Positions 1 to 64,000 of a stretch of 64,000 nt of DNA are shown here, piece by piece. The number at the start of each line of letters is the position of its first letter. The stretch's first letter is position 1. The notes under the pieces are model-generated. The model was not told the DNA's origin, ran no database searches, and was given only the letters and a program-made list of their open reading frames with translations. A program made the translations under genes and the position numbers. Origin of the DNA: Escherichia coli (GTDB lineage Bacteria > Pseudomonadota > Gammaproteobacteria > Enterobacterales > Enterobacteriaceae); NCBI RefSeq assembly GCF_044324875.1, contig NZ_CP172185.1; one strand, given 5' to 3'.

Positions 1-1346
1 CGTTTTTCGATACGTTCAGGCAGTTGTGCTGCAATTTGCGGCGTCGAATCGACTAGAATGATGCAGAATTCATCGCCACCGAGTCGGATGGCATAATCAC
101 TTTTACGAATCGACTGTTTAATCGCCTGAGCTAATAACGTAATCGCTAAATCCCCCTCCTGATGACCGAGGGTGTCATTTATTTGCTTTAACTTGTCCAT
201 GTCAATTGCAATAAACATCACCGAAGAACCGGATTGCACCAGTTTTTGCAACCGCTGCTCCAGTTCAGGGGTTAAAATTTTGCGATTATACAGTCCTGTC
301 ATCGCATCACTAATATTTTCTCGCGACACATTTTGGTATAAACGGAAGTGCATCCGCACCATATTCAGCAAAATTAACGCCGTCAAAATCCAGAACAGAA
401 CGCTTTTCCACGAAGACGTGATAAAGTAAAGAATATCAATGGATAACGAGACACGAATACCGCCCGGTAAGTCATGGACGTAACTGACATACTGGAACAG
501 ATTATCTTCGCTCTGGTTGATGATAATGTCGCGCCCCGAATCGGTATCGGTTAGCGTGACATTGAGAAAACGCCAGAGGAGAGGGCGGTCATGAGTGTAA
601 AAGATATTCCGCAGATTGTTTTTGTTAATATCCAGCAGCACAATCCCTTTTAGCTGCCCTGCGACATATACCGGCGTCAGCAAACTCATCACGTTCTGTT
701 TAGTACGCTGATCCTGGTAAATGCTCGATAAAACGGTACGCCCGGTAAATACCTTTTCAATATCTTTGCGATCGATGCCAATACTTCCTGACTGCAGGAA
801 AGACCAGTTATTCATCGCAAAGTATTCAACATTAACCGGCTCATAAAAATAGACATAGCGGTCATTGAGATCGAGATAATAGTGAAATTTCTCTTCGGCC
901 ATCCCAAGACCTGAACCGTAATCATCCTGGTGGCGGTTGCCTTCCACTGCCTGATCAAAAGCGGGTAATAGTGCTGCAGCTTCCACAATTGTGTCGCAGT
1001 CAGTGGATGCGGTTTGTAGTGTGCCGCGTAAGCCAGGGTATTTATGGGCAGTCAGGTTTAAGCCATGGGTATTATTGGCAGACTCAAAAGCCTCGCAGAT
1101 GGCGCGCCGCTGTTCTGGCGACACTTCCGACTGCTCAGCAGCGAGAGCGCGCATCACATGCGCGGCAATACTCTGATTCTGATACTTATCATAAAGAAAG
1201 GAGGAGTCTGCTCTCTGCACGATATAGCGCAGATAGGCACTCATTGCTCTGTCACTGGCGACAAGTTCAAAAATAAGGAAGGAAGATGTCAGCACAATGA
1301 CACTTGCGGCGATAAAATGCCGGAGCATTCTATGGTGCAATTTCAT
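1..1346 (-). CDS. dgcJ: Diguanylate cyclase DgcJ/YeaJ, partial (C-terminal end runs off the window start)
   Basis: Minus-strand frame starts at ATG 1344-1346 (MKLHHRMLRHF...) and stays open to position 1; GGDEF motif (RLGGDEF) is encoded near the window start; synteny next to yeaI. Not in the ORF track because it is open-ended. Confidence 0.85.
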   Translation of the reverse strand, partial: MKLHHRMLRHFIAASVIVLTSSFLIFELVASDRAMSAYLRYIVQRADSSFLYDKYQNQSIAAHVMRALAAEQSEVSPEQRRAICEAFESANNTHGLNLTAHKYPGLRGTLQTASTDCDTIVEAAALLPAFDQAVEGNRHQDDYGSGLGMAEEKFHYYLDLNDRYVYFYEPVNVEYFAMNNWSFLQSGSIGIDRKDIEKVFTGRTVLSSIYQDQRTKQNVMSLLTPVYVAGQLKGIVLLDINKNNLRNIFYTHDRPLLWRFLNVTLTDTDSGRDIIINQSEDNLFQYVSYVHDLPGGIRVSLSIDILYFITSSWKSVLFWILTALILLNMVRMHFRLYQNVSRENISDAMTGLYNRKILTPELEQRLQKLVQSGSSVMFIAIDMDKLKQINDTLGHQEGDLAITLLAQAIKQSIRKSDYAIRLGGDEFCIILVDSTPQIAAQLPERIEK

Positions 1347-1526
1347 GATAAATGGCACTCCTTCGGTTAGTGAAACGAGAAAACCAGATAAAGTTCGATT
1401 GCGGCCTGGCACAGGGGCGCTAATTATACTCATCTCTGCGCCGCTGGGGAGGGGAAATTTAGGGGTAATAGTAATAAATTGTATGCAAAAGCCACGCAAA
1501 AAGCATGGCTCTGAATATTTTTGCAC

Positions 1527-3002
1527 TTAAATATGATGAATAATCACTTTGTTGCCCCCCTCGCTTTTCGCTTCGCGTAAGGCTTTATCTGCTTCCGTCA
1601 TGACAAGCGAGATATTACGTGTGTCACCCGTTGAAAAAACCGTGCCAATACTGATGGTCATTTGCTCAGGAACATCATATCTGTTACTAAAGCCGGTCAG
1701 GAGTTCGACATTTTTACGCATACGTTCCGCAATGATTTTTGCCTGGGCACTATTCAGTTCGGTAAATAGCAAGCCAAACACCTCACCCTCCAGTCGCGCT
1801 AAAATATCATCGGGGCGGATGCTTTGCTGGATAATATCGACAATTGAAACCAGCACTTTATCACCCACACGATGTCCCCATTGGGCATTGATGCGTTTGA
1901 ACTGATTAATATCAACCAGCATGACACAGAAGTCCTTAACAACAGGTCGCGACAATAATGACTCTACGCTGTTGAAAAAGTAGCGCCGATTATAAATATT
2001 GGTCAGCACATCATGAACTGCCAGTTTGCTGGAGAGTTGCAGTTCCTGAAAAATGTTATAAATCAGAAAAGACACAACAAACAGTTTACTGGAGACTTCA
2101 ATCCCGCGACTGATATACCAGATGGTGTAATTATACTCATCCAGAGTTAGTAGAAGTAAGTTGCAGCATAGCGATGCCAGACATAATAATGCTATTAACG
2201 GCCATAGTTCGCTGGCTAATCGTGTACGCATGATAATAAAGAACAGTAAAAATGCCCACAGACAAACCAATATTTTTGTATAGTTGATTCCCCAGGTCGC
2301 AGTATGGTTGTCCGGACAGTAATCGACGACATACAAAGAATAGTCAGCGTTATAACTGCTCAGATTGTGTGCCAGAAGGGGAAAAACTAAAAAAGGAATC
2401 AGCGCCAGTAACAGAATGCCAGTTTTTTTCTTATTGTTGTCAAGGATGTTGTCTTTCCCATAACAAAAGAGCGCCAGCGAGGTTAAACAAATGAAACTGA
2501 GTTGGCGGAAAATATAGAAAATAGAAACATCATTCGACTTTGTCTGGATCAGTGTACTGCCGTTGATTGGTTTATGGATAATTACAATGGTTTCAACTAA
2601 ATAGATAAGGCCACTTAAAAATGCAAGGCTTAAAATGAGTGTTGGTAAAATTTGTTTGTTAGTGAAATACTTCATTAACATGAAAAGAAAAATGACGGCG
2701 TTAAGGAAAAACAAAGCCACAACAACCATCAGGTAATTCATCTGTGGGATGAGTTTTACATTCGTGTTTTCGTTATATAAGGTAGTAATGCAAAATAAAA
2801 TTAACGTCAGCAATAAGCTGAAAATAAAAAAGCCTTGAGCTTTTAATTTTTGTGTACCCATAGAAGCCATAAAAAGGAGAGCAATGTGAGTGCTGGATTT
2901 TATTGATGGCAGAGATATATAGTTTTGACCAGGATCAATTTTCGTTAACGATAAAAAATATTTAAAGAATAACCCCAGGGAAACACGTGTTGACCGAATC
3001 AT
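1527..3002 (-). CDS. cdgI: c-di-GMP-binding degenerate GGDEF protein CdgI/YeaI
   Basis: 491-aa ORF with N-terminal multi-pass membrane region and C-terminal GGDEF-like domain whose signature reads EGEVF; conserved position between yeaJ and yeaH. Confidence 0.9.
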   Translation of the reverse strand: MIRSTRVSLGLFFKYFLSLTKIDPGQNYISLPSIKSSTHIALLFMASMGTQKLKAQGFFIFSLLLTLILFCITTLYNENTNVKLIPQMNYLMVVVALFFLNAVIFLFMLMKYFTNKQILPTLILSLAFLSGLIYLVETIVIIHKPINGSTLIQTKSNDVSIFYIFRQLSFICLTSLALFCYGKDNILDNNKKKTGILLLALIPFLVFPLLAHNLSSYNADYSLYVVDYCPDNHTATWGINYTKILVCLWAFLLFFIIMRTRLASELWPLIALLCLASLCCNLLLLTLDEYNYTIWYISRGIEVSSKLFVVSFLIYNIFQELQLSSKLAVHDVLTNIYNRRYFFNSVESLLSRPVVKDFCVMLVDINQFKRINAQWGHRVGDKVLVSIVDIIQQSIRPDDILARLEGEVFGLLFTELNSAQAKIIAERMRKNVELLTGFSNRYDVPEQMTISIGTVFSTGDTRNISLVMTEADKALREAKSEGGNKVIIHHI

Positions 3003-3148
3003 TTTTCCGAATGATTGTTTTCTGGAACTAAATTGTGTAAAGGTTATGCTGTCATATTTAAAGCGATTGTAAGCTAATGTATGTAATAAATGAGATAATT
3101 TACAGTGAGCTAAAAATCAGCCAGGCGATAATGACCCGGCTGATAGTT

Positions 3149-4444
<1,296 letters not shown>

Positions 4445-4544
4445 CTACATTTGCCAACTGTATGCTACGCCTGTGTTGCCGCTTCTCTGGCCCACGGTTC
4501 GCTGTCGTTGTAGGCCCGGTAGCATGTGTACCGGGCCAGGGTTG

Positions 4545-6479
4545 TTAAGACGATTTACGTACGCGCAAATACCATTCGCACAGTAAACGCACCTGTTTAC
4601 GGGTGTAGCCTTTTTCCATCATACGGTCGACAAAATCGTCGTGTTTCTTCTGCTCGTCGGTTGACGTTTTGGCGTTAAACGAAATAACCGGCAACAGCTC
4701 CTCGGTATTGGAGAACATTTTCTTCTCAATAACCGTGCGCAGTTTTTCATAGCTGGTCCAGTTAGGATTGCGTCCGCTGTTATTCGCTCTGGCGCGCAGT
4801 ACGAAGTTAACAATCTCGTTGCGGAAATCTTTTGGATTACTGATCCCCGCCGGTTTCTCGATTTTCTCCAGCTCGGCGTTAAGAGACTCGCGGTCAAACA
4901 ACTGCCCGGTATCCGGATCGCGATACTCCTGATCCTGAATCCAGAAATCCGCGTAGGTAACATAACGGTCGAAAATGTTTTGCCCATATTCGGAATAGGA
5001 TTCAAGGTAGGCCGTCTGGATCTCTTTGCCGATAAACTCGGCATATTTCGGGATCAGATAACCTTTCAGGAACTCCAGATAGCGTTCTGCCTGCTCTTGC
5101 GGGAACTGCTCGCGCTCGATCTGCTGTTCCAGGACGTAGAACAGATGGACCGGGTTTGCCGCCACTTCTACATGATCGAAGTTGAACACGCGGGAGAGGA
5201 TCTTAAACGCAAAACGCGTCGACAGACCGTTCATCCCTTCATCGACACCGGCGTAGTCACGATATTCCTGATACGACTTGGCTTTGGGATCTGTGTCTTT
5301 CAGACTTTCGCCATCATAAACCCGCATCTTTGAATAAATGCTGGAGTTTTCTGGCTCTTTAAGGCGCGAAAGAATGGAAAAACGTGACAGCGTTTCCAGC
5401 GTGCCAGGGGCGCAGGGGGCGTGAGTCAATTCACTGTGATTAAGCAATTTCTCGTAGATTTTGATCTCTTCGGAAATGCGCAAGCAATACGGCACCTTCA
5501 CGATGTATACACGATCGAGGAAGGCTTCGTTGTTTTTGTTATTACGGAAAGTGACCCATTCGGATTCGTTCGAGTGGGCGAGAATAATCCCGTTGAACGG
5601 CAGGGCGGAGATACCTTCCGTCCCGTTGTAGTTACCTTCCTGAGTGGCGGTTAGCAAGGGATGCAGCACTTTAATCGGTGCTTTAAACATCTCAACGAAT
5701 TCCATGATCCCCTGATTGGCGCGGCACAGCGCACCGGAATAGCCGTAGGCGTCCGGGTCATTCTGCGCGTAGTGTTCGAGTTTACGAATATCGACTTTCC
5801 CAACCAGCGCGGAGATGTCCTGGTTGTTCTCATCACCGGGTTCCGTTTTGGCGATAGCAATTTGTTGCAGAATTGACGGCCAGACCTTCACTACCCGGAA
5901 CTTAGTGATATCGCCACCAAATTCATGCAGGCGTTTTGCCGCCCACGGCGACATGATGGTGCCGAGATAACGGCGAGGAATGCCATACTCTTTTTCCAGA
6001 ATCTGCGCATCTTCCTGCGGATTGAAAAGACAGAACGGATGATCGTTGACCGGGCTACGCTCACCGTTGGCGCTCAATACATAAATCGGTACGAGCTGCA
6101 TTAATGATTTCAGTCGCTCAGCAAGCGATGATTTACCCCCACCCACAGGCCCCAGCAGATACAGGATTTGTTTCTTCTCTTCCAGCCCCTGAGCCGCGTG
6201 TTTCAGATAAGAGACAATCTGTTCAATCGCGTCTTCCATGCCGTAAAACTCTTCAAATGCCGGATAACGTGCAATGACCCGGTTAGAAAAGAGTCGAGAA
6301 AGTCTGGGTTCCTGGGCTGTATCGACCATGACAGGCTCACCGATAGCCATCAATAGCCGCTCAGCCGCGTTGGCATAAGCACTGCGATCTTGCCGACAAG
6401 TGGTAAGAAACTCCTGCAGTGTGAACTCTTCGTCCTTGGCAGCTTCATATCGCTGGCGATAGTGATCGAATATATTCAT
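4545..6479 (-). CDS. yeaG: PrkA-family serine protein kinase YeaG
   Basis: 644-aa ORF with Walker-A-like GPVGGGKSS motif; recognised YeaG sequence. Confidence 0.92.
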   Translation of the reverse strand: MNIFDHYRQRYEAAKDEEFTLQEFLTTCRQDRSAYANAAERLLMAIGEPVMVDTAQEPRLSRLFSNRVIARYPAFEEFYGMEDAIEQIVSYLKHAAQGLEEKKQILYLLGPVGGGKSSLAERLKSLMQLVPIYVLSANGERSPVNDHPFCLFNPQEDAQILEKEYGIPRRYLGTIMSPWAAKRLHEFGGDITKFRVVKVWPSILQQIAIAKTEPGDENNQDISALVGKVDIRKLEHYAQNDPDAYGYSGALCRANQGIMEFVEMFKAPIKVLHPLLTATQEGNYNGTEGISALPFNGIILAHSNESEWVTFRNNKNNEAFLDRVYIVKVPYCLRISEEIKIYEKLLNHSELTHAPCAPGTLETLSRFSILSRLKEPENSSIYSKMRVYDGESLKDTDPKAKSYQEYRDYAGVDEGMNGLSTRFAFKILSRVFNFDHVEVAANPVHLFYVLEQQIEREQFPQEQAERYLEFLKGYLIPKYAEFIGKEIQTAYLESYSEYGQNIFDRYVTYADFWIQDQEYRDPDTGQLFDRESLNAELEKIEKPAGISNPKDFRNEIVNFVLRARANNSGRNPNWTSYEKLRTVIEKKMFSNTEELLPVISFNAKTSTDEQKKHDDFVDRMMEKGYTRKQVRLLCEWYLRVRKSS

Positions 6480-6914
6480 GGTATGCCGTCCTTTCGTTTT
6501 TTAGCACAGGTTAAGAGCCGTTCATATGAATAGTAGAGGCTCCCGGAAGAGGTAAACTGAACGACGTCTCTTGCTAAAACACAGCAACTCTCATGCCATT
6601 TTATCGACGATGAGAACAACGTGCCCGGTGATACACCTTCAAAATTAAGCGTAGATGGCAAATGGAAAACTTGCCTGCACGGCTTTCTTAATTTCAATGG
6701 CATATCAACAACTCATCCATAAATTTTGCATAATTAATGTAAAGACCAGGGTCGCCAGTAACGCTAAATTCATTTGGCTGTAAGCGCGGTGTCATCCGCG
6801 TCAGGAAAATTAAACAGTTACTTTAAAAAATGAAAACGTAAAAAGGTTGGGTTTCGATGTATTGACGGGTAAACTTTGTCGCCCGCTAAACATTTGTTTA
6901 AGGAATGATTAATT

Positions 6915-7661
6915 GTGACCAAACTCAAACTTCTGGCACTTGGAGTGCTTATCGCAACGTCTGCAGGCGTAGCGCACGCTGAAGGTAAATTTTCCCTGGG
7001 CGCAGGCGTAGGTGTCGTTGAACACCCATATAAAGATTACGATACCGATGTTTACCCAGTACCGGTAATCAACTATGAAGGCGATAACTTCTGGTTCCGT
7101 GGCTTAGGTGGTGGTTACTACCTGTGGAATGACGCAACGGACAAACTTTCAATTACCGCTTACTGGTCGCCGCTTTACTTCAAAGCTAAAGACAGTGGCG
7201 ATCACCAAATGCGTCACCTGGATGACCGTAAGAGCACCATGATGGCTGGTCTGTCTTATGCTCACTTTACCCAGTACGGTTACCTGCGTACCACCCTGGC
7301 TGGCGATACCCTGGATAACAGCAACGGCATTGTCTGGGATATGGCCTGGTTGTATCGTTACACCAACGGCGGCCTGACCGTGACTCCGGGTATTGGTGTG
7401 CAGTGGAACAGCGAAAACCAGAACGAATACTATTATGGCGTATCGCGCAAAGAGTCCGCTCGCAGCGGTCTGCGTGGCTATAACCCGAACGACAGCTGGA
7501 GCCCTTACCTGGAGCTGAGCGCCAGCTACAACTTCCTCGGCGACTGGAGTGTTTACGGTACCGCGCGCTACACCCGTCTGTCTGATGAAGTTACTGACAG
7601 CCCGATGGTGGATAAATCCTGGACTGGCCTGATTTCTACCGGGATCACCTACAAATTCTGA
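6915..7661 (+). CDS. mipA: MltA-interacting outer membrane protein MipA
   Basis: 248-aa ORF with signal peptide (MTKLKLLALGVLIATSAGVAHA), beta-barrel-like composition and C-terminal Phe; GTG start. Confidence 0.92.
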   Translation: MTKLKLLALGVLIATSAGVAHAEGKFSLGAGVGVVEHPYKDYDTDVYPVPVINYEGDNFWFRGLGGGYYLWNDATDKLSITAYWSPLYFKAKDSGDHQMRHLDDRKSTMMAGLSYAHFTQYGYLRTTLAGDTLDNSNGIVWDMAWLYRYTNGGLTVTPGIGVQWNSENQNEYYYGVSRKESARSGLRGYNPNDSWSPYLELSASYNFLGDWSVYGTARYTRLSDEVTDSPMVDKSWTGLISTGITYKF

Positions 7662-7692
7662 TAATGCATCTTTCCAGGGCATTTTGTGCATA

Positions 7693-7718
7693 AAAACAGG
7701 GCGTCACGCCCTGTTTTG
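7693..7718 (+). terminator. Rho-independent terminator downstream of mipA
   Basis: GC stem acagggcg/cgccctgt with 3-nt loop followed by TTTTG, about 30 bp after the mipA stop. Confidence 0.5.
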
Positions 7719-7750
7719 CATTACGGTGGTGCAATACCTGGGAGGAAACA

Positions 7751-8039
7751 ATGCAACAAAAAATGATTCAATTTAGTGGCGATGTCTCACTGCCAGCCAT
7801 AGGGCAGGGAACATGGTATATGGGCGAAGATGCCAGTCAGCGCAAAACAGAAGTAGCTGCACTACGCGCGGGCATTGAACTCGGTTTAACCCTCATTGAT
7901 ACCGCCGAAATGTATGCCGATGGTGGTGCCGAAAAGGTGGTTGGGGAAGCATTAACCGGTCTGCGAGAGAAGGTCTTTCTCGTCTCTAAAGTCTATCCGT
8001 GGAATGCTGGCGGGCAAAAAGCGATAAATGCATGCGAAG
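7751..8039 (+). pseudogene. yeaE: yeaE (aldo-keto reductase) 5' fragment, interrupted by IS insertion
   Basis: N-terminal 96 codons of YeaE (MQQKMIQFSGDVSLPAIGQGTWYMG...AINACE), then the frame runs into IS sequence and stops at 8056. Confidence 0.85.
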
Positions 8040-8241
8040 TGCAAAATGGCATCTGAATCGATCGCAGTTTGGCATTCGAATCGATCATGATTTGGCATCC
8101 ATCTCCGATCACAGTTTGGCATCACAATCGATCACGATTTGGCATGCTTCCGATCATTGATTGGCATCCTGCCAGTCACTCCGGGAATTAACTCTTTTCA
8201 CCACAGTCTCCATTGCCGTGTTTAAACCAGTGGAGACGTCA

Positions 8242-9807
8242 ATGTCCAGAAAGAGAAAATCCAGGAGCACTATGGAAACCTGTTTTAAGATCCTTCAGCT
8301 CAAGTTCGACAAGAAGCTGACTAACCGTTGTATCGGACTGACGTTACACATCAGCGCCTCAACCGTTTTTGAGGTTCTTGCCCGCTTCAAAGCCTCTTCT
8401 CTGTCATGGCCATTACCTGCTGATATATCCCATGACACGCTGGAGAAACTCATTTTTCCGCCCAAAGACACCTTTGCATCAGAGCTTGTAATGCCTGACA
8501 TGTTGTACTTCGATACGGAAATGAGAAAACCAGGTGTGACGCGGCAACTGTTGTGGATGGAATACAAGGCACAGGCGGGTAACAAAGCGATGGGATACTC
8601 GCACTTCTGCCGTTGCTACCGGGAGTGGAAAAAAACGCGACGTCTCTCCATGCGCCAGGAGCATCGTGCCGGCGAAAAGCTTTTTATCGACTTCTGTGGT
8701 CCTACGGTTCCTGTTATTAATCCGGACACCGGTGAGATACGCCGCGTGGCAATCTTCGTGGCCGTAATGGGGGCGTCCAACTATACCTACGTTGAAGCGT
8801 GCGAAGGTCAGGACATGATGTCATGGTTAAATGCCCACAGCCGTTGCCTGACCTTCCTGGGCGGCGTACCGAAGCTGCTCATCCCCGATAACCTCAGAAG
8901 CGCAGTGAAAAAGGCCGATCGATATGAGCCTGTCATCAACGACAGTTATCAGGCACTGGCTGAGCACTATGGCACGGTTATCATCCCGGCCCGACCACGC
9001 AAACCTAAAGATAAACCAAAAGCAGAAAACGGCGTCCTCATCGTTGAACGATGGCTTCTTGCCCGCATCCGTAATGAAACCTTCCACACGCTCAGGGCGC
9101 TGAATGCGCGCCTTAGGGAGTTACTGACAGACATGAATAACCGGCCAATGAAGGGGTACGGCAATCAAACCCGTGCAGAACGCTTCCGCATACTGGATGC
9201 GCCAGCACTCTCTCCGCTGCCTCTGGCACCTTATGAATACACGGAATACAAAGCTGTGAAGGTTGGCCCTGACTACCACGTTGAATATGCCCGTCACTGG
9301 TACTCCGTTCCACACGAACTGGTCGGTCAGCGTCTGTCACTGAAGGCGGGGCAGTCGGTGGTACAGCTCTGGCACAAGGGGCAGTGTGTGGCGCAACATC
9401 CGCGCAGCACACATGAATATAAACACACAACCAATCCGCTTCACATGCCAGAGCGCCACCGGCAGCACGGGACATGGACACCGGAACGCCTGATCGAGCA
9501 GGGAAAACGTACGGGCCCGTCCACAGGCCGGGTGGTTGAATCCATGCTGAAGGCAAAACCCCATCCGGAACTGGCTTATCGTGCAGTTCTGGGGCTGCTG
9601 GCACTTCAGAAAAAATACGGCCCGGAACGGCTGGAAAAGGCCTGTTACGTTGCCCTGCACTATAACGCCCCTGACAGACGCTTTATCGACAATCTGCTGC
9701 GTCACCATCGGGAGAACCTGGAGCTTCCATTATCCCGCCAGGGCGAACAACATCCGGCATATGCTTCAGAGCATGAAAACCTGCGTGGTCCGGGCTACTA
9801 CCACTGA
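8242..9807 (+). CDS. istA: IS21-family transposase IstA
   Basis: About 520-aa ORF with N-terminal HTH and DDE-type catalytic core typical of IstA; RBS GGAG upstream of ATG 8242; followed by istB. Confidence 0.85.
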   Translation: MSRKRKSRSTMETCFKILQLKFDKKLTNRCIGLTLHISASTVFEVLARFKASSLSWPLPADISHDTLEKLIFPPKDTFASELVMPDMLYFDTEMRKPGVTRQLLWMEYKAQAGNKAMGYSHFCRCYREWKKTRRLSMRQEHRAGEKLFIDFCGPTVPVINPDTGEIRRVAIFVAVMGASNYTYVEACEGQDMMSWLNAHSRCLTFLGGVPKLLIPDNLRSAVKKADRYEPVINDSYQALAEHYGTVIIPARPRKPKDKPKAENGVLIVERWLLARIRNETFHTLRALNARLRELLTDMNNRPMKGYGNQTRAERFRILDAPALSPLPLAPYEYTEYKAVKVGPDYHVEYARHWYSVPHELVGQRLSLKAGQSVVQLWHKGQCVAQHPRSTHEYKHTTNPLHMPERHRQHGTWTPERLIEQGKRTGPSTGRVVESMLKAKPHPELAYRAVLGLLALQKKYGPERLEKACYVALHYNAPDRRFIDNLLRHHRENLELPLSRQGEQHPAYASEHENLRGPGYYH

Positions 9808-55938: not shown

Positions 55939-56649
55939 GTAGTCAAAAATGGTAGATATTTACGATGCAGTAATGCTTTCACTCCGGTAATTAATTTCCG
56001 TGATTAACTGCTTTCGATCAATAAAGGAATTGCAAAAGTGTGATCTTGTTCACGACATTGTGGATGATAATATGCCTGATGTCTGAATCCGGAAACAGTG
56101 ATCTGGCGGTTTCATGTGAAGTTGACGGATAAAAAATCCGCACGACCAGACAGACGTGCGGTTTACGAAATTCGTAACAAGAGGCTTTTCTACGGATCAC
56201 GTGGTGCGTGCCACGTGAAATTTTTGTAGCGCAAAATGTGTGATGTGTAAATACAAGGAAGGAAAAAAGTTAAATCGGTGGAAGTCCATGCCTGCCACAT
56301 GTATGTCTGCATTCCTCGTTTTGAACAGAATTCTCACCAGACATCGTGAATTTCTCATTCAATCATCAGAGATATTACCCAGGATTTTTATTGTTTTGTG
56401 ATAGCAGTACTTTAAATGTTCAGATGCTAAAATAAGCGCGCTTATTATAATTATAGTTATGATGTTTTATCTGTATGTATTTTAATGATTTTCGCGTCAT
56501 TGCTTTTCTGCTGCTTAAATTGAAGGCGCATATTATACACAATAATATTCCTGGCATTATTAAATTAATAAAAGAGGATTCTTATCACTGTATTTTTGCT
56601 CCGCACTACCGTTCTGGCTGGTGAAGTAATAATACAGGAGAATAACAGA

Positions 56650-58197
56650 ATGCTTAAAAGACGTGATGCTTTTTTAAAGAAAAGCGCGCTGGCAGTGAGT
56701 GTGGCCCTGCTGCTCTCGGCTCAGGCTCAGGCTCAGGATATTTTAATCGGACCGATTGAACCTGGCGAAGATAATAGCTTTCTTGTTGGAGAATCAGTAG
56801 CTGGCCGTTCGATTGATAAAGTAAGAAATGTATGGTTGATTGGTGATGATTCTTTTTTATTAGACTCAAACAGGACTGTGCTTTTGGGGAATAATTCTGA
56901 TGTTGTGAACTCTCCGGGAAGTGTGAGTCTGGGGCATGATGCACTTATTGCTGACTCTGAATGGGGGACTGTTGCAGGAAAAGAAGCGTCACTTATTTCT
57001 TCTCGTCAGAGCTCGGCAATTGGTGCGTTTTCATCTGTGCAGGATTCTACCAGTTCTGTAGCTCTGGGCCATGGCTCACAGGTGTCGGGAGAAAATAACG
57101 TGGTATCTGTTGGTGCCGGGCCTGAGGGATATGGAGAGAGTGTCAAAGGAGCACCGGAAACCCGCCGGATTATAAATGTGTCTGATGGTATCAATAACAC
57201 AGATGCAGCGACGGTAGGGCAACTGAATGAACGATTTGATGATGCACAGGTCTTTTTGTTGCAGACGAATGAAAGAATTGACGAGACAGATAAACGTCTT
57301 TCAACAGTTCATGCTGAACTCAGCAGGGATATTATTGCAGGCACATCGGCAGCGGTGACGTATACAGATGTAACAGCGCTTGCACTTCAGGATGAGATAA
57401 AGGATGGGACGAACAAAGTACGTGATGAGTTGAAATCACAGGGAGACAGTCTGCGTGGTGAGATAGGCGGTGTATACAGAGATGCCCGTGCTCATACTGA
57501 CAGTCAGGTCACAGCAGTACGTGATGAACTGAAGGCAGAGGGAGACAGTCTGCGCGGTGAGATAGGCGGTGTATACAGAGATGCCCGTGCTCATACTGAC
57601 AGTCAGGTTACAGCAGTACGTGATGAACTCAGCAGGGATATTATTGCAGGCACATCGGCAGCGGTGGCGTATACGGATGCATCTTCTCTTGCTCTTCAGG
57701 ATGAAATAAAAGAAAAAGCGGATGAAACAGTTCAGGTTTCCCGGGCTTATACAGATAAAAGTGTACGGGATGCCCGTAAAGAAGCGAAAAGCCAGGCAGA
57801 ACATCTCAGCGATGTGCTTGTGAAGAACAGGGCGCAGACGGATGCAGCAATAGCCTCAAATACAGCAGCGATAAGGAATAACAGTCATCGTCTGGATTTG
57901 ACGGAAGCCTGGCAGAAGATGGCGACAGAGAGAATGAATAATATGCAGGAGCAGATTAAAGAGAACCGGAAGGAGTTAAGGGAGAGTGCAGCCCAGAGCG
58001 CGGCACTGGCAGGTCTTTTCCAGCCATACAGTGTTGGAAAATTTAACGCGACAGCAGCCGTTGGTGGTTACCGTGATGAGCAGGCCATTGCGGTGGGCGT
58101 GGGCTACCGTTTCACAGAGAATGTGGCAGGAAAAGTTGCAGTTGCTGCAGGTGGGTCATCCGCATCGTGGAATGCTGGTGTGAATTTTGAGTTCTGA
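56650..58197 (+). CDS. YadA-type trimeric autotransporter adhesin (515 aa; Eib/Saa-like size class)
   Basis: Signal peptide [29 protein letters not shown], repetitive coiled-coil stalk, and C-terminal YadA-like anchor ending ...[19 protein letters not shown] 9 nt upstream; AT-rich 5' region. Confidence 0.8.
57313..57730 (+). repeat. In-frame tandem and nested repeats inside the adhesin stalk
   Basis: A 105-bp unit (...[33 protein letters not shown]) occurs twice in tandem (about 57424-57528 and 57529-57633), flanked by two copies of a second roughly 100-bp unit ([16 protein letters not shown]...ALQDEIK) at 57313 and 57625. Confidence 0.7.
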
Positions 58198-58258
58198 CAG
58201 GTCAGGATTTAGATATCTGTCCCGGGGGGAGTCCCCCGGGATATAATGAGGTACAGAG

Positions 58259-58714
58259 ATGCTGGATATAATCCTGGCGACGAGAGATATTTATTTTGAA
58301 AAAGCCCTGCGAGAGATATTTGGAACCGTAAGCAGTCGAATCAGATATATAGAAGATGCCATATCAGACAGAAGAAGGGTGCAGTCAGGCAGGTCATTCA
58401 GATATTATTTTGTATTCTGTGATGATGAGTATACAGATATTGTTCGTATTCTTTTTACCGGAGAGGCCTGCTGTATTCTGAATAAGTCGATGCTGAATCT
58501 GAGAGCGGCCGGAGGTGTGTTGACGCTGGAAGAGCGCAGAGCGGTACTGAACCGGTATTACAGAGGTTTAAGTATTGCGGAGATTACAGAAGAGACGGGG
58601 CAGAATGACAAGACGGTATACGGTCATCTTCGTCGTGCACTGCAGCGGTCTGGATTCCGGAAGGGGCGTTTTATAAAGGGGAGAGAAGCGGCGGGGGATT
58701 CAGGTGTTGAATAA
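58259..58714 (+). CDS. Putative transcriptional regulator with C-terminal sigma-70 region 4 / LuxR-type HTH
   Basis: 151-aa ORF; C-terminal LTLEERRAVLNRYYRGLSIAEITEETGQNDKTVYGHLRRALQ resembles sigma region 4/GerE-type HTH; 60 bp downstream of the adhesin gene. Confidence 0.45.
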   Translation: MLDIILATRDIYFEKALREIFGTVSSRIRYIEDAISDRRRVQSGRSFRYYFVFCDDEYTDIVRILFTGEACCILNKSMLNLRAAGGVLTLEERRAVLNRYYRGLSIAEITEETGQNDKTVYGHLRRALQRSGFRKGRFIKGREAAGDSGVE

Positions 58715-58788
58715 TGTATCTTATATTGTGATATTGAACCGCCCCGGGAATCCTGGAGACTAAACTCCCTGAGAAAGAGGTAAACAGA

Positions 58789-59115
58789 ATGACTAAAAAT
58801 ACTCGTTTTTCCCCCGAAGTCCGTCAGAGGGCGATTCGTATGGTTCTGGAAAGTCAGGGCGAATATGACTCACAGTGGGCGGCAATTTGTTCCATTGCCC
58901 CAAAGATTGGCTGTACACCGGAGACTCTGCGTGTCTGGGTACGCCAGCATGAGCGGGATACCGGAGGCGGTGATGGCGGGCTCACCACCGCTGAACGTCA
59001 GCGTCTGAAAGAGCTGGAACGTGAAAATCGTGAACTGCGCCGCAGTAACGATATCCTTCGCCAGGCTTCCGCTTATTTTGCGAAGGCGGAGTTCGACCGC
59101 CTCTGGAAAAAGTGA
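58789..59115 (+). CDS. IS629 transposase OrfA
   Basis: 108-aa [63 protein letters not shown]... matching IS629 OrfA. Confidence 0.9.
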
Positions 59116-60002
59116 TGCCACTGCTGGATAAGCTGCGTAAGCTGTACGGGGTCGGACCGGTATGCAGTGAACTACATATTGCCCCGTCAACGTATTACCA
59201 CTGTCAGCAACAGCGACATCATCCTGATAAACGCAGTGCCCGTGCGCAGCGCGATGACTGGCTGAAGAAAGAGATACTGCGCGTATACGATGGGAATCAT
59301 CAGGTATACGGTGTGCGTAAAGTCTGGCGTCAGTTGTTACGGGAAGGAATCAGGGTAGCCAGATGTACAGTGGCGCGCCTCATGGCGGTTATGGGACTTG
59401 CCGGTGTTCTCCGGGGTAAAAAGGTCCGCACTACCGTCAGCCGGAAAGCCGTTGCCGCAGGCGACCGCGTAAACCGTCAGTTTGTGGCAGAACGTCCTGA
59501 CCAGTTGTGGGTGGCTGATTTTACTTACGTCAGCACATGGCAGGGGGTCGTCTATGTGGCGTTCATCATTGATGTGTTTGCCGGATACATCGTGGGGTGG
59601 CGGGTCTCATCGTCTATGGAAACGACATTCGTGCTGGATGCTCTGGAGCAGGCGTTATGGGCCCGTCGACCGTCCGGCACAGTCCATCACAGTGATAAAG
59701 GTTCTCAGTATGTATCGCTGGCCTACACACAGCGGCTTAAGGAAGCCGGATTACTGGCATCAACAGGAAGTACTGGTGACTCGTATGACAACGCGATGGC
59801 GGAGAGCATCAATGGCCTTTACAAAGCGGAGGTAATACACCGTAAGAGCTGGAAAAACCGGACAGAAGTGGAGCTGGCCACACTCACGTGGGTGGACTGG
59901 TATAACAATCGACGATTGCTGGAAAGGCTGGGCCATATCCCACCGGCAGAAGCAGAAAAAGCTTATTATGCTTCCATCGGAAACGATGATCTGGCAGCCT
60001 GA
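59112..60002 (+). CDS. IS629 transposase OrfB (DDE integrase core)
   Basis: 296-aa ORF overlapping orfA by 4 nt; motifs [16 protein letters not shown] and [15 protein letters not shown]. Confidence 0.9.
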
Positions 60003-60410
60003 GTTCACAGATAAAACACTCTCCAGGAAACCCGGGGCGGTTCATATCGGTGCTGCTGCTGTTATTTTTTGTTGTATTTGTGACGAATGGTTAAGAATAA
60101 AACATGAGTTGGTGATTATCAGGACAGGTTGCTTGTATATGAAGATAACAAAGGCGGCATTTATTTTTGCGCTGTCAGTGTGGAGTGTTGCTGTGATATG
60201 TCTTTTATTATTTGTACTGGTTGTTCTGGGATAGCTATAGTGGAATTATTATTTTTTTAAGACTATGGTTTATATTTTTATTCGGCAATATTTCTGTAAA
60301 CAATTAAATATCAGAAAGGCGTGTTGTATGCGTGAACACGCCTGAGTATGTATACAGAGATTGTTAATTTGGAGAGAATAATTACAGTTGTTATTTATTT
60401 GACGTCCTGA

Positions 60411-60695
60411 TTAGTGAAAAAACCAGTCATCAGCAGTTTCCCAGACTTCCTGCAGCGTTTCCTGTATGAACTTCTGAGCGTTTTCTTTATCTACGGCTCT
60501 TAAAATGGTCAGTCCGTCATTACTGGCGGATTTTACTATAACCTCCACATCGTCATATCGTTTTCTGGTACGGCGAGACATTTCCTGTTGTAGAGCAGGT
60601 ACAGAGCCTTTTGGCATTTTGCTGAATTTTTCTTTAGCGATACAGATCTCAATACGAATAAAAGTCCCTCTGCACTGTGTTATTTTTATCTGCAT
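60411..60695 (-). CDS. DinI-family protein (DNA-damage-inducible protein I-like)
   Basis: C-terminus [18 protein letters not shown] matches the DinI signature [25 protein letters not shown] resembles the DinI N-terminus MRIEVTIAK; true start within the 94-aa track ORF is uncertain. Confidence 0.6.
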
Positions 60696-61541: not shown

Positions 61542-61981
61542 CTACAGACTATTTTCATTCGGGAAAGCACCTTTGGTTTTGGTCAGTTTCCTGAACTGGC
61601 GATGGACTGATTCAATCGCATTTGTGGTGTAAATGACCTTGCGGATATTTGCCGGATAGCGGAAGTATGCTGACAGGTTTTCCCACTTGCGACGCCACGA
61701 CTGAAGCACCACCGGATATTGCTGGCCCCATTTCGCCTCCAGCTCATCCAGCGCCGTTTCTGCGGCTTCTTTCGACACCGCGCGATATACCGGCTTCAGG
61801 TCGGCCATGAACGCTTTGTGGTGTTTTGCCCTCCAGATTCAGCGCCAGCACCGTGTAAACGACCTTGCTCTGGTAGCGGCCATCCTCCCTGATTTTATAG
61901 TGAATGGCATCCAGCCATACGAAGGGGTAAACCTTCTCCAGCGGGCGCTGTTGCCACTGTTTTAACTCAGGAATGACCTTA
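61542..61981 (-). pseudogene. IS256-family (mutator-type) transposase remnant, internally deleted and truncated by the IS66-family insertion
   Basis: Minus-strand frames encode ...IPELKQWQQRPLEKVYPFVWLDAIHYKIREDGRYQSKVVYTVLALNLEGK and, in another frame, MADLKPVYRAVSKEAAETALDELEAKWGQQYPVVLQSWRRKWENLSAYFRYPANIRKVIYTTNAIESVHRQFRKLTKTKGAFPNENSL; the segment between them is too short. Confidence 0.7.
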
Positions 61982-62018
61982 GTAAGCGTACAGCGAGGGC
62001 CGTATTGACGGGGATGTG

Positions 62019-63557
62019 TTATTCAGCTGGCAGTGCTATGCGCCACGGAAGCAGTTCGCTGACCCGGTTGACCGGCCAGTCTGCTATGACGCCAAGCACA
62101 TGGCGAAGGTAGCTTTCTGGATCCACGTCATTCAGTTTGCACGTCCCTATCAGGCTGTACAGTAGCGCTCCCCGCTCACCACCATGGCCAGAGCCGAAGA
62201 ACAGGAAGTTTTTACGACCCAGACTTACCGCCCGCAGGGCATTTTCAGCGATGTTGTTGTCGATTTCCACCCAGCCATCGTTCGCATAGTACGTCAGTGC
62301 CGGCCACTGGTTAAGTGCGTACGCGAACGCCTTCGCCAACTCTGAGTGTCGCGACAGGGTCTTCATCTTTTCACGCAACCAGCTTTCCAGGGATTTCAAC
62401 AGCGGTTTCGTTTTTCGCTGACGTTCAGCAAGCCGCTGCTCTGCCGGCATTCCCCTTATATCCGCCTCTATGGCGTACAACTGACCGATCTGCTCCAGGG
62501 CTTCTTCCGTCAGTGCTGACGGGATGCGGACGTGCACATCGTGGATCTTTCGGCGGGCATGAGCCCAGCAGGCAGCTTCCGTTATCCCACCATTGCGATA
62601 CAGCTCGTTGAACCCGGCGTACGCATCCGCTTGCAGCACACCGCTGAAGCAAGCAAGATGAGTCTGCGGATGGATGCCTTTTCTGTCCGGGCTGTAAGCG
62701 AACCACACTGCAGGTGCCAACGCTGACCCGGCATTGCGGTCATCACGAACATACGCCCACAACCGCCCGGTCTTCGTCTTCTTATTACCCGGCATCAGTA
62801 CCTGGACCGGGGTATCATCGGCATGGAGTTTGCCGTCAGTCATGACATAGCCATGAAGCGCCTCTTCCAGCGGAGACAGCAGCCGGCAGCATGCATCCAC
62901 CCAGCCCGACAGCAGTGAACGGCTCAGCTCCACACCTTGCCGGCCGTATATTTCTGACTGGCGATACAGCGGGGTGTGCTCTGCATACTTCGAGGTCAGC
63001 ACGCGGGCCAGCAGCCCCGGTCCGGCGATACCCCGCTCGATGGGCCGCGAAGGTGCAGGTGCCTGCACGATGGCATCGCACTGAGTACAGGCATGTTTTT
63101 CCCGTACCGTCCGGATAACCCGGAAGGCGCTACGCATCAACTCCAGCTGTTCGGCGGTATCCTCGCCCAGATAGCTCAGTGAACCGCCGCAGTTCGGGCA
63201 GCACGGCGCCGCAGGCAACAGTCGCTTTTCGTCACGGGGTAGTGATTCAGGGAACGGCTTACGGATGCGGGTCTGACGCAACGGACGCTGTACTGCCGGG
63301 TCATACACCCTACCAGTCAGCGTATCGCTCTCTTTCTGAAGCCGGTTCAGATCGGCTTCCATTTGTGCGATACGGCGGGAGACTTTTTCGGAACGACTGC
63401 CGAAGTTCATCCGGCGGAGTTTATCCAGCTGCGCCTGCAGATGGTCTATTTCGCGCTCCCGGTTGCTCAGCTTTTCCTGCAGGGCGTGGATCAGCGCTTC
63501 CTGTTCGGCCAGGCGCTGTTTCAGCAGGAAGATGTCGTCAGAAGAGATGTCGTTCAT
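62019..63557 (-). CDS. IS66-family transposase (large ORF)
   Basis: 512-aa ORF with N-terminal coiled coil ([20 protein letters not shown]), zinc-finger CCPNCGG...CTQCD and DDE core typical of IS66 transposases. Confidence 0.85.
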
Positions 63558-63606
63558 AAGCCCGTATTTTACCGGGCTTATTCTGTGACAACCAGGATAA
63601 AGAGAT

Positions 63607-63954
63607 TTACAGCATGGTCAGGGAGGTCAGCAGCCGCTTAGGCTGTCGCCAGTCGATACCTTCCAGCAGCATCGCCAGCTGCGCCTGTGTAAGGAACACT
63701 TTGCCATCACGGGCTGACGGCCAGGCGAAGCGCCCACGCTCCAGCCGTTTGGTCAGGAGGCACAGTCCGTCACCGGTGGACCACAGCAGTTTAACCTGAC
63801 TGCCGCTGCGGCCCCGGAAAATGAAAACATGGCCGGACATGGGATCGTCTTTCAGCGCCGTCTGTACTTTCGCAGCCAGGCCGTTGAAGCCATTTCTCAT
63901 ATCGGTGATACCGGCAACCAGCCAAATTTTGGTCCCGGAAGGTAAAGGGATCAT
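63607..63954 (-). CDS. IS66-family accessory protein TnpB (orf2)
   Basis: 115-aa [34 protein letters not shown]...[36 protein letters not shown] matching IS66 Orf2. Confidence 0.88.
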
Positions 63955-64000
63955 CGCTTCAGTTCCTGTATCAGCAGAGTCAGGAGCTTTTCGCTGACAT
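63951..64000 (-). CDS. IS66-family orf1 (TnpA helper), C-terminal end only; rest lies beyond the window
   Basis: Minus-strand frame ending ...[12 protein letters not shown] with TGA overlapping the tnpB ATG (ATGA), the standard IS66 orf1/orf2 coupling. Confidence 0.5.
   Translation of the reverse strand, partial: VSEKLLTLLIQELKR

Follow-up and report, generated by a model that had tools for sequence, protein, structure and literature searches.

A 64,000-nt stretch of Escherichia coli DNA (contig NZ_CP172185.1; hereafter, the window) carries an insertion sequence (IS) between a regulator gene next to an adhesin gene and a DinI-like gene. In an initial annotation it was taken to be an intact and probably active copy of IS629. 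The locus raises the question of what this element is, how it came to lie at this site, and whether it might move again or rearrange its surroundings. We are highly confident that it is a structurally complete IS3-family element of the IS629/IS1203/IS3411 group, that it belongs to the sub-lineage of the enterotoxigenic E. coli (ETEC) H10407 copy, and that it was inserted recently, at the level of the strain, into the spacer with duplication of TAT. An element of an already known kind is thus found here, placed more precisely in the H10407-type sub-lineage rather than in the O157 or Shigella type.

Structure and reading frames

As read in the 64-kb window, the element spans 58735 (TGAACC...) to 60044 (...GGTTCA), which is exactly the 1310 bp that had been claimed (Table 1). 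Its opening letters at 58735 are TGAACCGCCCCGGGAATCCTGGAGA, and its closing letters are TCTCCAGGAAACCCGGGGCGGTTCA, an imperfect reverse complement of the start. The inverted-repeat arms, of 25 nt each, are complementary at 23 of the 25 positions (92%; TGAAC...GTTCA). This pattern occurred in only two places in the 64-kb window, with 0 chance matches expected from shuffled sequences.

Table 1 Features of the IS element and its neighbours (window coordinates)
Feature	Position	Strand	Evidence or remark
Complete IS3-family element, IS629 group, H10407-type sub-lineage	58735..60044	+	Gapless 1310-nt alignments
Left terminal inverted repeat (IRL), 5'-TG start	58735..58759	+	Inverted-repeat pattern search
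Right terminal inverted repeat (IRR), ...CA-3' end	60020..60044	-	2 mismatches to IRL
Left copy of 3-bp target-site duplication, TAT	58732..58734	.	Single TAT at empty sites
Right copy of 3-bp target-site duplication, TAT	60045..60047	.	Single TAT at empty sites
orfA, 108 aa, HTH_Tnp_1 DNA-binding protein	58789..59115	+	Pfam PF01527, 47.7 bits
orfB, 296 aa, -1 frame, HTH_21 and rve DDE core	59112..60002	+	Pfam, NCBIfam, exact protein match
Predicted OrfAB fusion transposase, 404 aa	58789..60002	+	Conceptual -1 frameshift at 59109-59112
Slippery tetramer A_AA.G, last sense codon AAG of orfA, then stop TGA	59109..59112	+	CTC TGG AAA AAG TGA; putative shift site
ALIL pseudoknot, cis-acting -1 frameshift stimulator	59070..59186	+	Rfam RF01497
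YadA-type trimeric autotransporter adhesin gene	56596-58197		Neighbour of the regulator gene
Sigma-70 region 4 HTH regulator gene, 151 aa	58259-58714		Left of the IS; stop TAA 58712-58714
DinI-like gene	60411-60695	-	Right of the IS; convergent with the regulator gene

The claim of two intact ORFs held: orfA and orfB overlap, with orfB in the -1 frame, and neither the 108-codon nor the 296-codon frame is disrupted or contains an internal stop. OrfB scored 95.1 bits for the Pfam domain rve and 64.3 bits for HTH_21, and the NCBIfam IS3-family transposase model NF033516 was matched with 308.7 bits against a cutoff of 160. The catalytic motifs, NAMAESI among them, were found in OrfB and place the DDE residues at D136, D195 and E231 (OrfB numbering). 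The exact OrfA sequence was present in at least 1000 contigs, and the exact OrfB sequence was that of CBJ04477.1, deposited as 'IS629 transposase' from ETEC H10407. A conceptual -1 shift at A_AA.G gave a 404-aa OrfAB without a stop, and in RefSeq the corresponding CDS of near-identical copies is joined from 2 pieces and labelled 'programmed frameshift'. All the sequence hallmarks of the IS3 family were found, namely, overlapping ORFs, a slip motif with a stimulator, rve and HTH domains, TG...CA repeats and a 3-bp duplication.

As established for the family, the product of orfA would be a small protein that binds DNA. Ribosomes slipping back by one nucleotide on A_AA.G, with the ALIL pseudoknot as stimulator, would join orfA to orfB and so yield the 404-aa DDE transposase OrfAB. 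This protein is expected to act on both terminal inverted repeats in a copy-out-paste-in process via a circular intermediate, and its insertion events would leave target duplications of 3-4 bp.

Frameshift signal

The ALIL pseudoknot matched Rfam RF01497 over the full length of the model (1-117 of 117) with a bit score of 116.2 (gathering score 50, E 4.5e-31). Within it, the lineage of the window copy (hereafter, the window lineage) has diverged at several positions. The slip motif is A_AA.G in the window lineage, whereas it is A_AA.A in all labelled IS629/IS1203 copies compared. This single A-to-G change is synonymous, and it also alters the first codon of orfB from ATG to GTG. Additionally, a G-to-A change at 59174 breaks a C-G pair of the apical hairpin, leaving a lineage-specific, non-standard C.A pair; further lineage-specific changes in the frameshift signal lie at 59139, 59143 and 59168. 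The minimum free energy of the apical hairpin was -11.5 kcal/mol in the window lineage versus -15.7 to -18.2 kcal/mol in other sub-types, i.e., 4-7 kcal/mol weaker.

Of the six tetramers that are effective in E. coli when combined with a pseudoknot stimulator, A_AA.G ranked first and A_AA.A last, with frameshift efficiencies ranging from 5.6% down to 0.26% (PMC4066793). As far as the predicted folding goes, the weaker ALIL hairpin could lower the output of OrfAB, and the A_AA.G slip motif may compensate for it. A tentative reading, to which we give a low probability, is that the H10407-type lineage is a functionally distinct IS629 variant whose frameshift signal has been re-tuned by A_AA.G together with the opened hairpin pair. 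If the OrfAB:OrfA ratio does differ in this lineage, its transposition rate would be unlike that of O157-type IS629/IS1203, and such an altered rate, if true, could account for the spread of the lineage over E. coli chromosomes, plasmids and Salmonella plasmids.

Name and sub-lineage

The name was judged on proxies for the prototype X51586 (S. sonnei pSS_046, pO55, pO157 Sakai and depositor-labelled phage and plasmid copies), and all copy comparisons were gapless over 1310 nt. Between the window copy and those that carry the label IS629 or IS1203 in S. sonnei, O55:H7, Stx phages and O157:H7, 52-67 nt (4.0-5.1%) differed. The number of differences was 52 for the 'IS629' of BP-4795 (96.0% identity), 56 for the 'IS629' of Stx2_499 (95.7%), 57 for the S. 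sonnei pSS_046 copy (95.65%), 60 for the pO55 copy (sub-type II of Rump et al.; 95.4%) and 66-67 for O157-type copies (94.9-95.0%). In the four copies translated (pO55, two O157 and 2020N21-246), OrfB differed at 12-14 of 296 residues (95.3-95.9% identity). The codon differences in orfB to other sub-types were mostly synonymous (29-39 versus 12-14 non-synonymous), which points to selection on the protein.

Two ISfinder rules bear on the name. Isoforms share at least 95% of their nucleotides with the prototype (X51586 for IS629), and near-identity means more than about 98% amino-acid identity of the transposase. On the proxies, at about 95-96% nucleotide identity, formal membership of IS629 is borderline. 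The OrfB proteins of pO55, 2020N21-246 and O157 fell short of the latter value, whereas that of H10407 was 100% identical. The close identity to O111/O157-type copies that would go with the name IS1203 was likewise not seen, given the 66-67 differences. Meanwhile, the length of 1310 bp agrees with IS629, and IRL and IRR are the same as in pSS_046, pO55 and Stx2_499 over 25 nt. PGAP names the O157-type copies 'IS3-like element IS1203 family' and the window-lineage copies only 'IS3 family transposase'. All sub-types share one 90% protein cluster, in which the names are generic save for the 'IS629 transposase' of H10407, so that a homologue search would not tell them apart. The window lineage is common: in 826 E. 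coli records and in 645 plasmid records, the best match reached at least 99% identity.

A mosaic copy was observed on a plasmid of S. dysenteriae 204/96 (locus 301-1610). Over the first ~600 nt it follows the window lineage, with 4 differences, and over the last ~700 nt sub-type II, with 7 differences; therefore, IS629 lineages recombine.

It is possible, although we doubt it, that the window copy, while the same kind of element, is a separate isoform or sub-type, diverged by ~5% and possibly nearer to IS3411 or meriting a name of its own. The nucleotide distances to the pSS_046, pO55, Stx2_499 and O157 copies speak for such a separation, as do the 12-14 differing OrfB residues, the 'IS1203 family' label that PGAP gives to O157-type copies but not to the window lineage, and the lineage-specific slip motif and hairpin; moreover, sub-types 4-5% apart have already been split by Rump et al. 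However, an identical OrfB was named 'IS629 transposase' by the H10407 depositors, and the length, both inverted repeats, the ORF layout and the duplication size are those of labelled IS629 copies. Identity to the S. sonnei and annotated IS629 copies is also just over 95% (95.6-96.0%), and the S. dysenteriae mosaic shows the lineages recombining as one family. Relative to the sub-types of Rump et al. (2011), which are 4-5% apart, the window lineage is either a further IS629 sub-type or one that is inseparable from theirs with their data.

We retain the assignment to the IS629 group. Judged from these alignments, the name IS629 appears valid only in its broad, common usage, for an element that looks to form a sub-lineage of its own, close to the limit usually set for isoforms. 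What stands of the name first given is an intact IS629-type element 2 nt away from the H10407 copy; what does not is a close match to the other labelled copies, 52-67 nt away. The initial annotation had listed sequence divergence from reference IS629 and frame disruption as grounds against itself, and these were found in part: the divergence amounted to 4.0-5.1% against the proxy labelled copies, and the frames were undisturbed.

Mobility of the lineage

The closest relatives, in 1517k, in MS 119-7 and on a Salmonella Heidelberg IncHI2 plasmid, are 1 nt each from the window copy. Each of the three differs at a position of its own; the window copy has no private substitution and takes a central place among its nearest relatives. 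When a 1310/1310 identical copy was sought in 5,426 complete E. coli genomes and the plasmid collection, none was returned, and the best match was 1309/1310. Copies 1-3 nt apart were found at unrelated sites on E. coli chromosomes, on plasmids and on the Salmonella Heidelberg plasmid, and the near-identical copies were mostly flanked by duplications of their own (ACG, TTT, AAC, GCT, CCT and GTAC). Its intactness and these near-identical copies elsewhere make it likely that the window copy still transposes. The lack of a private change and the mainly synonymous nature of the differences to other sub-types also favour activity.

An opposing explanation is that the copy is structurally intact but silent, with a weak stimulator or no expression, and so would be dormant and would cause rearrangement only as a substrate for homologous recombination. 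We consider this improbable. A silent copy would fit the C.A mismatch in ALIL, with an apical hairpin that falls 4-7 kcal/mol short of those of other sub-types, the GTG first codon of orfB and the absence of a second copy from the 64 kb. However, the hairpin and slip-site variants are common to all near-identical copies, which lie at many sites with fresh duplications; because these copies share both features, the lineage transposes with the weak hairpin and A_AA.G. In addition, no tetramer in E. coli is more prone to shifting than A_AA.G, which greatly exceeds A_AA.A (PMC4066793), and the lack of any private substitution relative to the closest relatives also argues against a silent copy.

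Insertion site and target duplication

The position of the element relative to the regulator gene was as initially described, with 20 nt between the stop codon TAA (58712-58714) and the IS. The empty site was rebuilt from the window by joining 150 nt on the left to 150 nt on the right, minus the IS and one TAT, and was searched in 5,426 complete E. coli genomes with at least 80% of the length and at least 99% identity required for a match. It was matched in 182 of these 5,426 genomes, several of them at 300/300, whereas the occupied left junction had 0 matches in the same 5,426 genomes. The initial annotation had proposed a comparison with the empty site in related strains, and the complete genomes of TUM9803 and GF43, which carry the same adhesin-regulator module, provided it: both are uninterrupted and read ...TTGTGA TAT CGGTGCTG..., with one TAT and without the IS. 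The flank on either side of the window copy is collinear with the empty sites elsewhere.

Because a single-TAT empty site exists in other genomes (182 in all), the paired TAT represents a genuine duplication of a 3-bp target, canonical as first proposed. IS629 is reported to produce target duplications of 3-4 bp in targets without sequence specificity (PMC3271280). The insertion is precise and, among the genomes searched, limited to the source strain. The chance is negligible that the TAT pair is coincidental and that recombination brought the element in together with its flanks or that it forms one end of a larger composite structure: a given 3-mer does recur by chance at ~1/64, and oftener in AT-rich spacers, and the surroundings are IS-rich (ISEc8 lies to the right, and related strains carry IS remnants), but taking out exactly 1310 bp and one TAT restores a sequence present at 300/300 elsewhere, the flanks are collinear with empty sites, no partner IS629 copy lies inside the window, and the empty sites with a single TAT rule out an origin of the pair by chance or recombination.

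Genomic context and effect on neighbouring genes

The true insertion of an IS629-group element described above lies in the spacer between the convergent regulator and DinI-like genes and interrupts no ORF; a neutral effect on the neighbouring genes is therefore probable. A scan for promoters and terminators around the insertion returned fewer sites than shuffled sequences did and gave no sign that a terminator of the regulator gene had been hit.

Just to the right of the insertion, a strongly hydrophobic, unannotated ORF of 31 aa was observed (60139-60234, plus strand; MKITKAAFIFALSVWSVAVICLLLFVLVVLG). It is kept at the empty sites of other strains, has no NCBIfam match and is now parted from the regulator gene by the IS.

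The initial annotation also regarded the element as a potential driver of further rearrangement around the adhesin locus. A second IS629 copy or fragment that could act as a partner in recombination or in a composite transposon was sought in the 64-kb window, and none was found. Because there is no second copy in the window, this claim is only the generic potential of any IS. Farther right, on the minus strand from about 61978 to 64000 and past the right end of the window, lies an ISEc8-type element of the IS66 family, comprising a 512-aa transposase gene (62019-63557), tnpB and tnpA, which is 99.9-100% identical in many genomes.

Other insertions of the IS629 family were observed in the same module. 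In strain 2020N21-246 (locus 5201-6510), a sub-type-II-like copy lies between the adhesin and regulator genes; it is 5 bp ahead of the start of the regulator gene and is flanked by a duplicated GTAC equivalent to 58251-58254 of the window. In strain 135 (locus 4874-6182), a frameshifted IS629-family copy lies inside the adhesin gene, at the equivalent of about 56953-56956. That these two represent the same insertion as the window copy was ruled out, as they are other sub-types at other positions. Including the window copy, three separate IS629-family hits fall within 1.8 kb, and the adhesin-regulator module appears to be a repeated target of the family.

The module itself varies among strains. 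The adhesin stalk contains 99-nt (33-aa) tandem repeats (57299-57710), and both repeat number and protein length vary by strain; the adhesin is 533 aa long here versus roughly 370-515 aa in annotated homologues elsewhere. In E. coli ECCNB12-2 (locus 373-9761), the adhesin, HTH regulator and DinI-like genes directly follow tail genes of lambdoid type (gpJ, tail fibre), where a prophage ends beside yecD-aspS. The left flank of the window module (56596-60695) matches an IS-scarred island of the TUM9803 type, and the sequence at the regulator end occurs in up to 6 copies in some genomes. The adhesin-regulator module seems to be prophage cargo that has been moved between contexts.

Implications

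The insertion is a clean, strain-specific event that can be used as a typing marker, and it adds to the evidence that IS629-family elements repeatedly insert into this prophage-type adhesin-regulator module. Moreover, the name 'IS629' spans several lineages that are 4-5% apart and have different frameshift signals. Because the lineages and their frameshift signals differ, data on copy number and activity from O157:H7 should be transferred to the H10407-type lineage only after a test.

Comparison with known systems

The nearest known system is the 'IS629' of H10407 p948 (CBJ04477.1; NC_017724.1, 31732-33041), which is identical to the window copy at 1308 of 1310 nt. Its OrfB is identical, its OrfA differs by 1 residue, and its inverted repeats, slip motif (A_AA.G) and hairpin variant are those of the window copy. 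The two substitutions lie at IS positions 54 and 176. It occupies another insertion site, and its flanking triplets do not match, unlike the TAT pair in the window.

The copies of S. sonnei pSS_046, pO55 and Stx2_499 resemble the window copy in their length of 1310 bp, 25-nt inverted repeats, orfA/orfB coordinates, ALIL stimulator and 3-bp duplication. They differ from it at 56-60 nt (95.4-95.7% identity) and about 12 OrfB residues, and they have an A_AA.A slip motif, an intact hairpin C-G pair and an ATG first codon in orfB. Among them, the copy in the Stx2a phage Stx2_499 (LC567824) was annotated by its depositors as 'IS3 family IS629' with the same 1310-bp limits, ORF layout and 3-bp duplication as in the window. 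The IS1203 or O157:H7-type IS629 (sub-type I) has the same length, architecture and family, whereas 66-67 nt, 14 OrfB residues and 1-3 positions of the inverted repeats are different. Excision of the O157 type is boosted by IEE, a finding that concerns the O157 type (bioRxiv 10.1101/2023.06.07.543989).

More distantly, IS3 and IS911 share with the window element the orfA/orfB arrangement, an OrfAB produced by -1 frameshifting, a DDE (rve) core, TG...CA ends and duplications of 3-4 bp, and they differ from it at the sequence level. Copy-out-paste-in transposition, as in IS3 and IS911, was applied to the window element from the literature on the family and would be its expected route. The stimulators are also of different kinds, namely, an H-type pseudoknot in IS3 and a three-way junction in IS911, compared with the ALIL type in the window element.
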